DNA of 64,000 bases from a virus. This document shows, piece after piece, positions 1 through 4,461 of this stretch. How positions within the stretch are numbered: position 1 is the stretch's first letter; each line of letters opens with the position of its first letter. The position numbers were made by a program, and so were the translations under genes. The DNA lies in the IMG/VR virus record IMGVR_UViG_3300013094_000033, positions 1 through 64,000 of that record; one strand, 5' to 3'. The notes beneath the pieces were generated by a model, which saw nothing but the letters and a program-made list of their open reading frames with translations, was not told the DNA's origin and searched no databases.

Positions 1-74
1 CGGAGTGTACGGGACTCGAACCCGTGGCCTCATGCGTGACAGGCATGCGATCTAACCAACTGAGCTAACACTCC
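1..74 (-). tRNA. tRNA-Asp(GUC); the 3' CCA, if encoded, lies beyond the window edge
   Basis: Reverse complement GGAGTGTTAGCTCAGTTGGTTAGATCGCATGCCT-GTC-ACGCATGAGGCCACGGGTTCGAGTCCCGTACACTCCG forms a cloverleaf with a TTCGA T-loop and G discriminator. Confidence 0.95.
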
Positions 75-77
75 AAA

Positions 78-298
78 ACTATATTAAGATGTACTACAGG
101 AACCATTGTAGATCTATCTCTACCTAAGGGAACGTCTCCGCATAGGCCTCCACGGTCATTACTGCCTACATGATCCGTCATCTCATCCTATTGCTAGGAC
201 CTGACTTCGTGAACTCTAAGATTGCGTAGGGCGGCCCCTTTGCTCCTCTCTTAAAGTGCCTAACGGTGTAGGTAACCTCTAATACATTTTAATATAGT
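78..298 (-). ncRNA. Unidentified ~220-nt structured RNA, copy 1 of a tandem pair
   Basis: The ends pair in a long AU-rich stem. Internal hairpins include UCCUA-GCAA-UAGGA. Roughly 80-85% identical by eye to 304-529, with compensatory changes. No ORF in the track. Confidence 0.75.
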
Positions 299-303
299 AA
301 GAA

Positions 304-529
304 ACTATATTAAGATATATTATAGGAACCATTGTTGATCTATCTCTACTTACAGGAACCTTTCCACGTAAGTCTCAACGGTCATTACTGCCTACCGACT
401 CCGTCATCCGATCCCATTGCTAGGACCTGACTTCATGGACTTTAAGATTGCGTCAGTAGCTCTCGACTACTTGCACCTCTTTTTAAGTCCCTAACGGTGT
501 AGGTAACCTTTAATACATTTTAATATAGT
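304..529 (-). ncRNA. Unidentified ~225-nt structured RNA, copy 2 of a tandem pair
   Basis: Same architecture as copy 1. Most internal differences keep pairing on the minus strand through G-U wobbles or compensatory swaps. Confidence 0.75.
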
Positions 530-550
530 ATGAAACTATACTAATTTAAT

Positions 551-578
551 TTTTAAAGAACGTTGTTAATTTCTTAAC
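551..578 (-). promoter_or_regulatory. boxB-like hairpin plus boxA-like antitermination signal
   Basis: Minus strand reads GTTAA-GAAA-TTAAC then CGTTCTTTAAAA (rrn boxA consensus TGCTCTTTAACA), just after a promoter and before non-coding RNA genes. Confidence 0.55.
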
Positions 579-586
579 ATGTATGT

Positions 587-615
587 ATTGTAGCAAACTT
601 TTCTTTTTGGTGCAA
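587..615 (-). promoter_or_regulatory. sigma70-type promoter for the ncRNA/tRNA region
   Basis: TTGCAC-17 nt-TACAAT on the minus strand. Confidence 0.7.
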
Positions 616-692
616 CTGTTTTTTACAACTGTTGCTTTTTTGCTACAACGTTTGTTTGATAACAAACTTGGTTAATTTCTTAACTTGTTTCT

Positions 693-737
693 ATTGTATA
701 ACAAACGTCTTTATGTGTCTGTTGTATTTTTACAACA
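693..737 (-). promoter_or_regulatory. Second tandem sigma70-type promoter with an adjacent palindrome
   Basis: CAGACA-17 nt-TACAAT, followed by the same GTTAAGAAATTAAC hairpin (671-684) as the first promoter. Palindrome TGTTGTA-N4-TACAACA at 720-737. Confidence 0.55.
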
Positions 738-743
738 TGTTGT

Positions 744-784
744 TATTCTAAAACACACTAGTTTGCTTAATGTGTTTTAGAATA
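744..784. repeat. Perfect 14-bp AT-rich inverted repeat (processing stem or terminator-like)
   Basis: TATTCTAAAACACA (744-757) pairs with TGTGTTTTAGAATA (771-784). No U-tract follows on either strand. Confidence 0.6.
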
Positions 785-927
785 CCCTCTTGGTAGAGGA
801 TATGGTAGGGTTGATACCCTACCCAGGAGTCTTACTAAGTGCATTTTCGCTACACGTTCATGTATCCTGTCCGCCCGTTTTGCTTGTTTATTGTGTTGCA
901 GGGACCTCGTTTCCCATTCCACATAAC

Positions 928-959
928 AAAAAACCCTAGGGTTTTTAATCCTAGGGTCC
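928..959 (-). terminator. Intrinsic terminator of a putative attenuator
   Basis: Minus strand GGACCCUAGG-AUUAAAAAC-CCUAGGG-UUUUUU. Confidence 0.75.
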
Positions 960-981
960 TTGGAGTTTGTGTACTTTTTAG

Positions 982-1128
982 TTACACCGTGTCCTCCCGG
1001 ACCCTAGTAATCTCTGATGTGCGATCATTACTTGTAAACATCGGCGCACAAATCACAGACCAATAGGCTAACACGCCTAGTTTGGGCTGTTTATTTTGTA
1101 GCGAATGTCTTAGAGTTGTTTGCATCAT
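982..1128 (-). CDS. 48-aa putative leader peptide MMQTTLRHSLQNKQPKLGVLAYWSVICAPMFTSNDRTSEITRVREDTV (not in the ORF track)
   Basis: ATG at 1128 and TAA at 984-982 are in frame. AGGT and a GATAAATA late-type motif lie upstream. The 3' end overlaps the antiterminator strand. Confidence 0.6.
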   Translation of the reverse strand: MMQTTLRHSLQNKQPKLGVLAYWSVICAPMFTSNDRTSEITRVREDTV

Positions 1129-1159
1129 GTACCTATTGTAGTTTATTTATCTCTTGTTG

Positions 1160-2413
1160 TCAAATGTATTTATTAAATTCGGTAATCAACCAGGGAAAAG
1201 TTTTTGGCCAACTTGTGCCGCGTCTACGATCCATTTCAGTTAAAAAGTAATACAATCGTTTTATCATTTCCAAATTTGGTCGTTTGCTAGCAGATTGTTT
1301 AGCTATACCCAACAGATAATTTTTATTAGATTGATCTTCAGGGAATGTATCTGCTTTAAGAGCAATTGCTCGATTAAAATCATCAACAAAAATATCCCCA
1401 AAAATATCAATTAGGAAATGTGGTGGCCCACTTGGTGCACATTGATAATGTGCAACAGGTCTAATTTTATTCCATTCACGTATTTTAACTAATAAATCCG
1501 GCAAAGTCTTTACAGTCAACGGAGTTACTGTAGAACTAATAATTAAATTTATCCACTTATGTTGTAGTAGATAGTTAAAATTTTCTTCCCATATAGTTAG
1601 ATCCAATGGAAATCTAACGTATTCTTGTTCTGGCCCCCAACAATCTAAACTTGCAGTTATTTCAACCCCTGCAATTTTTTTACTGCCAACTAATTTGCGT
1701 AACCTGCCAACAATGTTGGTTAGATGTTTTAAATTTGTATTAAGATTAGTAAAGAATTGTAATTTTAAATGCGGTGCAGGATATTCATCAAATAAATCTA
1801 AGCATTGCTCAAATTCTTTTTGATACAATGGTTCTCCACCTAATATGTTAAAATTAGTCAGATACTTTCCGTTTTCCTTAAGCCAAGAAAATATCTTTTC
1901 TTTATTTGAATCTATATTTTTACTTTTTTGAAATTTGTCAGAAATATCAATTGCTTGACTTTTAAAATACCCAAATTTTTTATTTTCAGCGTCCCACAGA
2001 CTACTAAATTTAGGACTACAATACAAGCATTTTAAATTACAGGTATTGTCAAAGTAAACTTCTAATATTCGCGGAGTAACACGTATTGCAGAGCTATCAG
2101 TGTCTAGCTCGGGTGGCGGATACATACCTGGAAAATTTAAATTTGTGATCCTGTCACTTTGTCCGCCAGCATCTTCTATATTTTTACAGTATTCACAGCC
2201 ATCCCCGGGCCATTGGCCCTCTAGCATCAAAGATCTTTGCTTGAGTTTTTCGGGGGTGTTGTGAAAATCGAATGTGCTAGTGTCAAATTTATGTTGGTTT
2301 ACACGATGACAACTAGCAGTTTCTTCAGTTGTTAAAAAAATTGTACTCCAATTCCACTTTAGCTGGCAAGCAGTTTCGGTTTGAATTGGAAATAATTTAT
2401 GCTTTAACGTCAT
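1160..2413 (-). CDS. Radical SAM protein with N-terminal auxiliary Cys motifs
   Basis: CNLKCLYC (CxxxCxxC), GGEP, and N-terminal CQLKW/CH/CEYC. Confidence 0.9.
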   Translation of the reverse strand: MTLKHKLFPIQTETACQLKWNWSTIFLTTEETASCHRVNQHKFDTSTFDFHNTPEKLKQRSLMLEGQWPGDGCEYCKNIEDAGGQSDRITNLNFPGMYPPPELDTDSSAIRVTPRILEVYFDNTCNLKCLYCSPKFSSLWDAENKKFGYFKSQAIDISDKFQKSKNIDSNKEKIFSWLKENGKYLTNFNILGGEPLYQKEFEQCLDLFDEYPAPHLKLQFFTNLNTNLKHLTNIVGRLRKLVGSKKIAGVEITASLDCWGPEQEYVRFPLDLTIWEENFNYLLQHKWINLIISSTVTPLTVKTLPDLLVKIREWNKIRPVAHYQCAPSGPPHFLIDIFGDIFVDDFNRAIALKADTFPEDQSNKNYLLGIAKQSASKRPNLEMIKRLYYFLTEMDRRRGTSWPKTFPWLITEFNKYI

Positions 2414-2642
2414 TCGTAGTGGTGGTATTCAACGTTGGTTCGTTAATACGTTTAAGTTCATCGTCAGTCATAAAACGACTTGGTTGTTCATTTACTGTAT
2501 TCCAGTTTTTAAACCAACCCAGTGGTTTCCAGAATCTATAAATGATGTTGTTAACAACAACAATAAGAATTACTGCTACAAGAATTGCCAAACCAGTTAA
2601 AATACTTCCGGCCAAAATGTTAGCGGCGTTATCGATATCCAT
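2397..2642 (-). CDS. Small membrane protein
   Basis: One hydrophobic helix (ILAGSILTGLAILVAVILIVVV). AAGGA RBS upstream. Confidence 0.7.
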   Translation of the reverse strand: MDIDNAANILAGSILTGLAILVAVILIVVVNNIIYRFWKPLGWFKNWNTVNEQPSRFMTDDELKRINEPTLNTTTTNDVKA

Positions 2643-2664
2643 TGTGTTTCCTTGAAAAGTTGAT

Positions 2665-2741
2665 TGGTGCGCCGAGAGGGACTTGAACCCCCAACCAATC
2701 GATTATGAGTCGACTGCTCTAACCAACTGAGCTATCAGCGC
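2665..2741 (-). tRNA. tRNA with CAU anticodon, most likely tRNA-Ile2 (lysidine type)
   Basis: GCGCTGATAGCTCAGTTGGTTAGAGCAGTCGACT-CAT-AATCGATTGGTTGGGGGTTCAAGTCCCTCTCGGCGCACCA. The anticodon arm resembles ileX-type tRNAs and lacks the initiator GGG/CCC stem. Confidence 0.9.
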
Positions 2742-2750
2742 AAGTTTTAT

Positions 2751-2779
2751 ATTATACTAGCAAATTAGTATTGTGTCAA
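2751..2779 (-). promoter_or_regulatory. Perfect-consensus sigma70 promoter for the CAU tRNA
   Basis: TTGACA-17 nt-TATAAT, with the -10 box about 10 nt upstream of the tRNA 5' end. Confidence 0.9.
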
Positions 2780-4461
2780 GTTCTACGTTGACGTCCGGGC
2801 ACAGTCTGTGGCGTTGTAGCAACACGTTTTGTACGAGGAGTAGAATCTGCTGGGCCAAGACCATGTATGGCTACATCTTCTTTTTCTTCTTGCTGTTCTG
2901 CTTGTGCTCGAAGTTGTACACGAGTTGGGTCGCTGTTAAATTTCTGGAAATATTCTTTTGCTCTGGCACTTGTTGCACTTGGACCAAAATAAATTCCGGG
3001 ACTACACTTGGCTGCACTTCTATTCATAGTCATTGGACTAGGAAAATGTACCGTCGATTCTCCAGAATTAGAATCTGGTTTGTCGTTTAACAAGTTAACT
3101 ATGTCCTTGGCCATAATGATCTTGTACTCTTGCACACTACTGTTAAACAAGATAAACCCATCGTTGCCTTTGCCAGCTGCGTATTCAATTAATGCCATTA
3201 CACCCTGTTCACGTGCAATAGTTTTTGTATCCATGGTATCAATGGCCTTCATTAGGCGTCGCATCGCGGCTTTAAAATCATATCCTGGGAAATTTAAAGT
3301 ACTAGGAAACATAGATCCCATCATGTAGCCAATTAATCTTGGTGCGGCGCCCGGCTTTTTGACACTTAGCAAATTTAAAAATGTAACAAGATCTGGTAAC
3401 TTAGAACTACGGAAGTCTGCATTATTCCATAATGAATTCATTTTTGTATCCATTGTACCAAAGTTCTCTAGCAACCAATCATTGCCAACACTACGCAGTT
3501 GTGCACCCGATACTTCTTTACCAGCCGTGCTGTCTAACCATGCTTCGTTTGCTTTACCGGTGCTAGGCAAAGAACCATCTTTGTTACGCTTACTAGTAGG
3601 GCTCAATGAACCGCATTTAACTTCAAATTTGGTGCGTTTACCATTGATGTCAATTACAACATCGCCACCTTCATCAGCAGCAGGTTTCTTAGCACCGCCC
3701 ATGATAGCCAACATAGCTTCAAATGGGCCAGTGGCTCCGCGTTGTCCAGTACTTAAACTAATGTCTAACAATGTATCTTTAACACTTGCAAACACATCTT
3801 TAACACCAGGAACTTTAGTTGTAACTACATCATCAAGTGATCCTTGTCTACGTTTTAACATACCTGCTACGTCCATGGCAGTATGATTTTCGCAGGCCTT
3901 TAAGAACTTTACACGTGATTCTCTTGGAATAGAAATACTAAACATACCAACAAGATTACGTGCCCAAATTGGTTTAAGATCAAAGTCCTTGGCAAATTGT
4001 TGTGCAGTTCTTTCAATGTCGGCATCAAGTTTACCAATTTCGCCCTTGGTATTAAGCTGAATACCTTTAATTGCTGCTGTAGTTGCACGAGCAACTTCAG
4101 GTTGTTGTGCTAACTGTACTTTAGTACTTAATGCCGCAACATACTGTTCAAACTCAGCCAACTTAGCGGCTTGATTTGGATGTTCTTGTTTGTATAATGC
4201 AAGAGCCGCATTTAAATATGCTTCATTTGCATTAGCAATAAATTGTTTGTTAGGAGTTGCACCTGATTGTTGTTTGATTGCTTCTGTTATATCAGGTTGT
4301 ACAACACGTAAAATATCAGCAGTAGTACCAACGATATAATCAATAAATTGATTTAGCGGAGACCCAGCAGGCAATTTGCTTTGTGCTTGAATCAAAGTCT
4401 TTAAGTTTGCGCCAAAACTAGTGGGTGAGGCGGCTTCTACTAGTGTAATTAAATCTCTCAT
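2776..4461 (-). CDS. Putative virion-internal protein with a PD-(D/E)xK nuclease-like domain
   Basis: N-terminus MRDLITLVE resembles a capsid-targeting propeptide. GPFE...GGDVVI...FEVKCG fits a nuclease motif. TAAATA lies 4 nt before the ATG. Confidence 0.55.
   Translation of the reverse strand: MRDLITLVEAASPTSFGANLKTLIQAQSKLPAGSPLNQFIDYIVGTTADILRVVQPDITEAIKQQSGATPNKQFIANANEAYLNAALALYKQEHPNQAAKLAEFEQYVAALSTKVQLAQQPEVARATTAAIKGIQLNTKGEIGKLDADIERTAQQFAKDFDLKPIWARNLVGMFSISIPRESRVKFLKACENHTAMDVAGMLKRRQGSLDDVVTTKVPGVKDVFASVKDTLLDISLSTGQRGATGPFEAMLAIMGGAKKPAADEGGDVVIDINGKRTKFEVKCGSLSPTSKRNKDGSLPSTGKANEAWLDSTAGKEVSGAQLRSVGNDWLLENFGTMDTKMNSLWNNADFRSSKLPDLVTFLNLLSVKKPGAAPRLIGYMMGSMFPSTLNFPGYDFKAAMRRLMKAIDTMDTKTIAREQGVMALIEYAAGKGNDGFILFNSSVQEYKIIMAKDIVNLLNDKPDSNSGESTVHFPSPMTMNRSAAKCSPGIYFGPSATSARAKEYFQKFNSDPTRVQLRAQAEQQEEKEDVAIHGLGPADSTPRTKRVATTPQTVPGRQRRT

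Follow-up and report, generated by a model that had tools for sequence, protein, structure and literature searches.

What are the transfer RNA (tRNA) arrays of large phages for, and when are they used? Their purpose and use are an open question, which is raised again at one end of IMGVR_UViG_3300013094_000033. We analysed the first 64 kb (64,000 nucleotides; hereafter the window) of this 75-kb IMG/VR viral contig (GC 38%), where a tRNA array on the minus strand is preceded on the same strand by a short open reading frame (ORF) and an intrinsic terminator. An initial annotation, drawn from the letters alone, had read this leader unit as an attenuator through which the tRNA region responds to decoding stress in general, and comparative and in silico evidence supports that reading. 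The unit is probably a ribosome-mediated transcription attenuator that heads a phage tRNA operon and is gated by the decoding of all amino acids. It suggests on-demand tRNA expression, governed by the decoding of all 20.

The ORF, the terminator, the complementary segments and the inner helix were all found on the minus strand at the positions where they had been placed by the initial annotation. In order of transcription, the parts of the unit are the following.

1135-1163, minus strand: sigma70-type promoter, TTGACA (1163-1158), 17-nt spacer and TACAAT (1140-1135), with 11 of 12 consensus matches
1144-1151, minus strand: GATAAATA motif within the spacer of that promoter, read from the sequence
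982-1128, minus strand: leader ORF, 48 codons and a UAA stop codon (984-982), with all 20 amino acids; read from the sequence, frame kept in relatives
1012-1067, minus strand: two conserved nucleotide blocks (1067-1051 and 1029-1012) with a variable stretch between them; helix predicted by RNAalifold at columns 77-90/119-132 of the alignment of 24 relatives
994-1007, minus strand: 5′ strand of the antiterminator, CUAGGGUCC-G-GGAG, codons 41-45; from complementarity and RNAfold
969-987, minus strand: inner hairpin GUGUA...UACAC, containing the stop codon (984-982) and forming the top of the antiterminator; from RNAfold
951-965, minus strand: 3′ strand of the antiterminator, CUCC-AA-GGACCCUAG, overlapping the 5′ arm of the terminator; from complementarity and RNAfold
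928-956, minus strand: intrinsic terminator with a GC-rich stem of 7 bp, CCCUAGG (956-950), 9-nt loop, CCUAGGG (940-934) and U6 (933-928); hairpin of about -11 kcal/mol

The leader unit in other jumbo-phage contigs

Relatives of the unit were collected in three ways. An exact scan with a conserved 17-mer gave six further versions, after 13 chance matches inside unrelated coding sequence had been set aside, and a profile built from the leader peptides gave 26 loci. A motif scan of the terminator flanks, which is independent of ORF content, returned at least 119 stretches; 18 of its matches were unrelated coding sequence and were set aside, and two family members whose core helix carries one mismatch were kept. 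After removal of chance matches, at least 112 family stretches stood in IMG/VR jumbo-phage contigs, and the GGGUCC of the core helix was intact in 110 of the 112 among the matches listed. They encode at least 74 distinct leader peptides of 42-50 residues, and every count out of 74 given below refers to the matches listed. The first set of 24 distinct aligned relatives was used for the tree, the null models and the helix covariation.

The window itself comes from a contig that CheckV estimated to be about 22% complete, implying a jumbo phage of about 340 kb. The DNA sequencing runs that contain the stretch are lake-water metagenomes, and no RNA run containing it was found among the sequencing runs listed. 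A search of INPHARED (GenBank phages) gave no match to the leader unit or to a neighbouring 561-residue protein, and found no cultured relative.

The reading frame is kept while the peptide drifts

In 77 distinct sequences among the matches listed, the 40 codons upstream of an invariant GUC codon contained 4 stops in the ORF frame and 155 and 318 in the two alternative frames. Distances between conserved nucleotide anchors varied in steps of three across relatives, and in one clade a -1 frameshift is compensated two codons away by a +1 frameshift, so that the stop keeps its position. These observations suggest that the leader ORF is translated. Its product looks different: the ratio of nonsynonymous to synonymous variation (pN/pS) was 0.59 when pooled and 0.5-0.8 by region, and variation was nearly equal at the three codon positions (0.37, 0.33 and 0.33). 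Stop counts, pN/pS and codon-position variation thus agree with what the annotation had expected of an attenuator, a frame that is kept while the peptide drifts. The leader peptide does not appear to be under protein-level selection, and the pattern is that expected of a leader whose translation matters and whose product does not.

Some positions vary little. The Trp is near-invariant, as are the Arg and Glu of a DRT-P/S-E block, and the most conserved peptide positions fall in the last ~25 residues, about one exit-tunnel length. In the blocks conserved in the peptide, none of the three codon positions is free to vary, and these blocks coincide with predicted RNA helices, a pattern that argues for a constraint at the level of RNA rather than peptide. 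One such helix, the family-consensus hairpin at 1012-1067, may serve as a pause or timing hairpin; the changes within it are mostly wobble changes, which are weak evidence, and the minimum free energy (MFE) structure of the window's own RNA pairs the region differently. Pfam, PHROGs and NCBIfam gave no match to the leader peptide.

The end of the ORF is predicted to switch the terminator

Folding of the window RNA with RNAfold returned exactly the long antiterminator hairpin instead of the terminator, with an MFE of -69.5 kcal/mol against -45.2 +/- 3.7 for 200 shuffled sequences (z = -6.5). The antiterminator segment accounts for about -29 kcal/mol, compared with about -11 for the terminator. 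A consensus terminator scan missed the latter because its loop limit is 8 nt and the loop here has 9.

Both helices are kept in relatives, with some covariation. The terminator stem occurs as UAGG/CCUA, CAGG/CCUG and CUGG/CCAG. The core of the antiterminator, GGGUCC and GGACCC, is invariant in the 24 aligned sequences, GGGUCC spanning synonymous sites; the pair adjoining it is A-U in 19 of the first set, G-C in 2 and G-U in 1, and the GGAG/CUCC extension shows G-C, G-U, A-U and U-A variants. Across the alignment 89.7% of the cells of this helix were paired, against 18-66% when the partner was slid by 1-3 columns, and its covariation score of 0.144 (0.099 in shuffles) was reached by none of 500 shuffles. 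The inner hairpin had 58 distinct sequences in 74 relatives, yet its fold was always kept (mean z -3.6), and the stop codon was fully base-paired within it in 52 of them.

The free RNA adopted the antiterminator in 22/24 relatives of the first set and in 74/74 of the larger sample; when the 5′ strand was masked, the terminator formed. We scanned a ribosome footprint along the window transcript by masking -15 to +12 around the A-site codon. The probability of the antiterminator was at least 0.83 with the A site at codons 1-37, and that of the terminator at least 0.85 with the A site at codon 39 or any later position up to the stop. Folds with and without a footprint thus bore out the proposed switch, which passes from antiterminator to terminator at codons 38-39. 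The predicted read-through zone, codons 1-37, contains 19 amino acids.

Amino-acid completeness of the leader appears to be selected

As the annotation had noted, the window peptide contains all 20 amino acids, its four Arg codons are all different, its four Ser codons likewise, and its Pro and Ala codons end in C or G. Nineteen amino acids are present by codon 35, Glu at codon 39 completes the set, and only 2 of the 48 residues are Ala. Random windows of 44-52 residues from the phage's own proteins contain all 20 in 1.0-2.5% of cases (1.7% at 48 residues), so the single instance in the window is only suggestive, and it is persistence across the family that makes the full set significant. In the first set, 22 of 24 peptides contain all 20 amino acids and the other two contain 19. 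In the sample collected independently of the ORF, 63 of 74 are complete and 10 have 19, very divergent 42-residue versions included.

This completeness is maintained while rare residues move. Cys, almost always present as a single copy, is spread over 8 alignment columns and toggles repeatedly between two of them inside one clade; Tyr alternates between the position preceding the Trp and the one preceding the DRT block. We set these patterns against two phylogeny-aware nulls on the tree of 24 sequences, both of which retained the same branches and columns of change. With new residues redrawn from BLOSUM62-conditioned frequencies, complete tips averaged 2.6, with a maximum of 14 in 1000 runs; with the observed new residues shuffled within their column, they averaged 7.2, with a maximum of 18 in 2000. 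Since neither null reaches the observed 22/24 and rare residues relocate, the comparison argues that amino-acid completeness itself is under selection. Selection would then act on composition rather than on sequence, which is an unusual kind of selection.

The annotation had also pointed to codon diversity and called the leader 'all-codon'. The 34 distinct codons among 48 do exceed the background of random windows (P = 0.013), but the excess is explained by the amino-acid sequence (P = 0.23 given that sequence), and in the family it is mild and non-independent (mean z +1.7). Codon diversity follows from amino-acid diversity, and the accurate label is an all-amino-acid leader.

The unit stands at the head of tRNA arrays

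Downstream of the terminator, two features of the window matter here.

745-918, minus strand: conserved structured non-coding RNA directly after the terminator, with a GGGAAACGAGGUCCC hairpin at 915-901 and AACGGGCGG at 879-871
1-74, minus strand: tRNA-Asp (GUC), first gene of a same-strand tRNA array that is truncated by the contig end

Among the matches listed, all 54 units whose downstream flank reaches at least 1.5 kb are followed by tRNAs on the same strand inside the next 2 kb (median 9), and none has an opposite-strand tRNA there. In the 2 kb upstream, tRNAs were found for only 2 of 62 units, again among the matches listed. The first tRNA starts ~410 nt past the terminator in relatives, which carry 8-24 same-strand tRNAs downstream of the unit.

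The non-coding RNA recurs in 70 distinct relatives among the matches listed, and several of its stems covary on inspection. Its first hairpin carries an AACGAGG loop and the next one a CACUNUAAACA-like loop; the invariant AACGGGCGG and a long hairpin follow. Examples in relatives lie at L112:3258-3447, L107:3399-3588 and L125:3342-3531. In the window, which has no ORF2 (below), it follows the terminator directly at 918-745 and is the probable first RNA made on read-through. Rfam has no family for the leader or for this RNA. Over window positions 1-3000 at E <= 1, Rfam returned tRNAs only, plus a below-threshold Plastid-ycf2 match on the opposite strand of a tRNA-Met; in eight relatives, at the gathering score, it returned only tRNA and tmRNA (transfer-messenger RNA), and no T-box.

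In 18 of the 24 relatives a second, conserved reading frame, ORF2, begins 13-19 nt past the U tract of the leader. It encodes 50-58 residues with the motifs HTLT, KLI and ERA, has its own Shine-Dalgarno sequence (examples: L102:3207-3368, L104:3224-3376, L105:3224-3400 and L082:3679-3840) and has no match in Pfam or NCBIfam. There, ORF2 would be the first protein made on read-through.

A promoter that opens on the leader ORF

The initial annotation had reported a late-type motif, GATAAATA, upstream of the ORF. The motif is present at 1151-1144, and it sits inside a near-consensus sigma70 promoter (1163-1135) that had been overlooked. The AUG of the leader lies 6 nt past the -10 box, so a transcript from this promoter would be leaderless or nearly so; in relatives, Shine-Dalgarno-like leaders precede the leader ORF. 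Among the matches listed, 68 of 70 relatives have a strong sigma70-type promoter in the 130 nt that precede the leader AUG.

A similar TAAATAA motif stands in the promoter spacer of about one third of relatives (matches listed). In the contig, 11 of 70 ORFs have ATAAATA in the 60 nt before them, against ~0.7 expected; these include ORFs starting at 4461, 18450, 28026, 31417, 41909, 55023 and 63695 (minus strand), among others. The motif looks like a T4-type late promoter element, and its enrichment before ORFs suggests that a late-type phage promoter element may overlap the sigma70 promoter of the leader.

A model for the switch and the points that weigh against it

We propose that the strong promoter would give a transcript opening almost at its 5′ end with the 48-codon leader ORF. 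The last eight leader codons would form the 5′ strand of the antiterminator, which consumes the 5′ arm of the weaker terminator. A ribosome in step with the polymerase, on the last codons or the stop, would hold the 5′ strand, so that the terminator forms and an RNA of ~200 nt is released. If the ribosome were absent, or stalled in about the first 37 codons, the antiterminator would form and transcription would read through into the non-coding RNA and the tRNA genes. With every amino acid in the leader, phage tRNA transcription would rise whenever any one aminoacyl-tRNA species ran short or was inactivated, as may happen in starvation, when phage codon usage does not match the tRNA pool of the host, or when host defences cleave tRNAs. 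The net effect would be a feedback loop on decoding capacity. Translation in vivo, the direction of the switch (from its geometry), its kinetics, its dynamic range and its physiological signal are what we infer in this model.

The unit has the short ORF (on comparative evidence), the intrinsic terminator and the mutually exclusive helix (in silico) of ribosome-mediated attenuators. It has no run or enrichment of codons for a sensed amino acid; all 20 are present instead. Without runs of regulatory codons, and with a selected all-20 set, it would be a variant of that class. More tentatively, the loop may be closed: the leader would sample at least one tRNA species for each amino acid, and a near-complete phage tRNA set would be raised when any of them is limiting, including after cleavage by an anticodon nuclease, which would make the leader a counter-defence sensor. 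Such a unit, which we regard as possible, would be the first attenuator known for tRNA genes and the first leader selected for completeness. In our literature search, no account of a leader of this kind preceding phage tRNA genes was found.

Several observations weigh against the attenuator model. In the window, Glu occurs only at codons 39 and 45, where a stalled ribosome is predicted to favour termination, a borderline result that depends on the assumed footprint, and 4 of 24 relatives have their only Val within the strand that forms the antiterminator; not every one of the 20 thus falls neatly in the sensing zone. The stability of the antiterminator greatly exceeds that of the terminator, so read-through may be the default and the regulatory range small, and the folds are equilibrium folds that ignore co-transcriptional kinetics. 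The all-20 nulls ignore some site-specific constraints. The conserved blocks around the Trp, DRT-P/S-E and RV-R/Q-E could reflect a role of the peptide itself, inseparable from the RNA constraint. Finally, the tRNAs may have other promoters. A further strong promoter lies between terminator and tRNAs in 15 of 70 relatives among the matches listed, and the window has a weak promoter-like site at 721-693 (9 of 12 matches). The annotation had placed two sigma70 promoters at 587-721; the weak site accounts for one of them, no second was listed, and no strong promoter (at least 5/6 in each hexamer) was found downstream of the leader in a search of window positions 500-1200. With such promoter-like sites downstream, the switch is not the sole control of the tRNAs.

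Other explanations of the unit

The same switch might carry a narrower signal. It could report ribosome-polymerase coupling only (whether ribosomes are available, initiate, or are inhibited by a toxin or a host defence), or the C-terminal peptide could be an arrest sequence or sensor in the exit tunnel. The ribosome-free default fold is the antiterminator, so that any loss of translation would lead to read-through; the best conserved peptide positions span about one tunnel length; and known upstream ORF (uORF) sensors reportedly respond to many ribosome inhibitors (PMC12121999). Coupling alone leaves a maintained all-20 set with relocating rare residues unexplained, and the conservation of the peptide blocks at all three codon positions, on RNA helices, points to an RNA-level constraint rather than to a tunnel peptide. 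We consider these versions unlikely, and favour an attenuator gated by the decoding of all amino acids.

A conventional gene for a small protein, with a promoter and a terminator of its own, is another reading: the peptide would be functional, and the long 3′-end hairpin would merely stabilise the mRNA. We find this improbable. The ORF is in frame in at least 70 distinct relatives with promoter and terminator, and its Trp, Arg and Glu hardly change. A pN/pS of 0.5-0.8 without an excess of third-position changes is, however, atypical for a functional protein, and the invariant stretches, which match no Pfam, PHROG or NCBIfam family, are nucleotide-invariant structured RNA. A small protein would also leave unexplained the all-20 set, the strict position before tRNA arrays and a stabilising hairpin that competes with the terminator.

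If the open frame were incidental, the locus would be a structured non-coding RNA, either a small RNA acting in trans or a signal by which the tRNA precursor is processed or entered, such as an RNase III or RNase E site. The strong structure (z = -6.5) and the nucleotide-invariant blocks fit this idea, and attenuator-derived RNAs that act in trans are known (PMC6614838); such a role could hold in addition to attenuation. The stop counts (4 against 155 and 318), the indels in steps of three, the compensated frameshift and the all-20 set all require translation, and no Rfam family was found, which makes a purely non-coding element very unlikely.

A precursor of a ribosomally synthesised and post-translationally modified peptide (RiPP), acted on by the neighbouring twitch-domain radical SAM enzyme (1160-2413), would fit a leader ORF that starts 32 nt past the enzyme gene, but has next to no probability: the adjacency occurs only in the window and one other contig (L011/L125) and the other 78 radical SAM loci lack the unit, no close enzyme homologue lies within 3 kb at other leader loci (L085 has a distant opposite-strand match, 26% identity, ~3.7 kb downstream), and the Cys and Tyr positions are not fixed. 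We rejected it for lack of linkage, blastn and nhmmer searches with the element against 80 radical-SAM loci having matched L011 only.

Neighbouring features

The radical SAM protein just upstream of the leader (417 residues, window 1160-2413, minus strand) matches NF033640 with E = 2e-65. Its relatives occur at 247 stretches of IMG/VR viral contigs, unlinked to the leader unit. Upstream of its gene, outside the main array, lies a lone tRNA-Met (CAU) at 2665-2741 on the minus strand, preceded by a perfect TTGACA-17-TATAAT promoter at 2779-2751.

Two tandem RNA-like copies of ~220 nt (window 78-529, minus strand) lie between the promoter-like site at 721-693 and tRNA-Asp, with no Rfam match at E <= 1. 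Near the tRNA array of relatives stands a permuted tmRNA of betaproteobacterial type (L105:1104-1522 and L085:5891-6267), which hints that the host is a betaproteobacterium and that the phages encode a broader set of translation tools.

Comparison with known systems

The enterobacterial leader attenuators (trpL, hisL, pheL, thrL, leuL, ilv) share with the phage unit a short leader ORF, a terminator and an exclusive antiterminator; completion of the leader stops transcription and an upstream stall allows read-through. Their leaders contain runs of one or a few amino acids and control the biosynthesis of that amino acid, whereas the phage leader uses each of the 20 a few times at most and precedes phage tRNAs. 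Its antiterminator 5′ strand also lies inside the ORF, upstream of the stop, unlike in the trp/his type, and there is no sequence homology. Since the phage leader has no equivalent of the 1:2 helix, absence of translation is predicted to give read-through and not super-attenuation.

T-box riboswitches likewise couple the state of the tRNA pool to a choice between terminator and antiterminator before translation-related genes. Each T-box recognises a single kind of uncharged tRNA by direct binding and lacks an ORF, whereas the phage unit has no T-box match and the evidence points to translation of a leader.

Many antibiotic-sensing uORF leaders use Rho rather than an intrinsic terminator, and none is known to require the full set of 20 amino acids or to control tRNA genes. 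In the E. coli topAI-yjhQ system, a short uORF reportedly reads ribosome stalling in a similar way (PMC12121999) and alters downstream transcription, and sensors of this type respond to drugs at particular codons, unlike the phage leader.

Functionally nearest is the whiB7/wblC leader of Actinobacteria, a broad translation-stress sensor that also combines a uORF, a Rho-independent terminator and an antiterminator. Read-through at whiB7 is induced when any of many amino acids, tRNAs or synthetases is depleted, and the amino-acid content of the uORF sets which starvations do so; the M. smegmatis uORF lacks only Cys (10.1101/2023.06.02.543512). When one amino acid was recoded out of the whiB7 leader with its RNA structure preserved, only starvation for that amino acid no longer gave a response. 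The whiB7 uORF is 25-40% alanine, incomplete in some species and cellular, and its target is a transcription factor. In the phage leader Ala is not abundant (2 of 48 residues), its completeness appears to be selected, and it precedes a non-coding RNA and tRNAs (with ORF2 in relatives) and no WhiB regulator; the two have no sequence relationship.

Set beside these systems, the phage unit would extend leader attenuation, known from sensors of a single amino acid in biosynthetic operons of cells, to a sensor selected for completeness, to tRNA genes and to viruses. Its all-20 signature with relocating rare residues can be searched for elsewhere, and if the model is true, an element of only ~230 nt could serve as a general reporter of translation stress.

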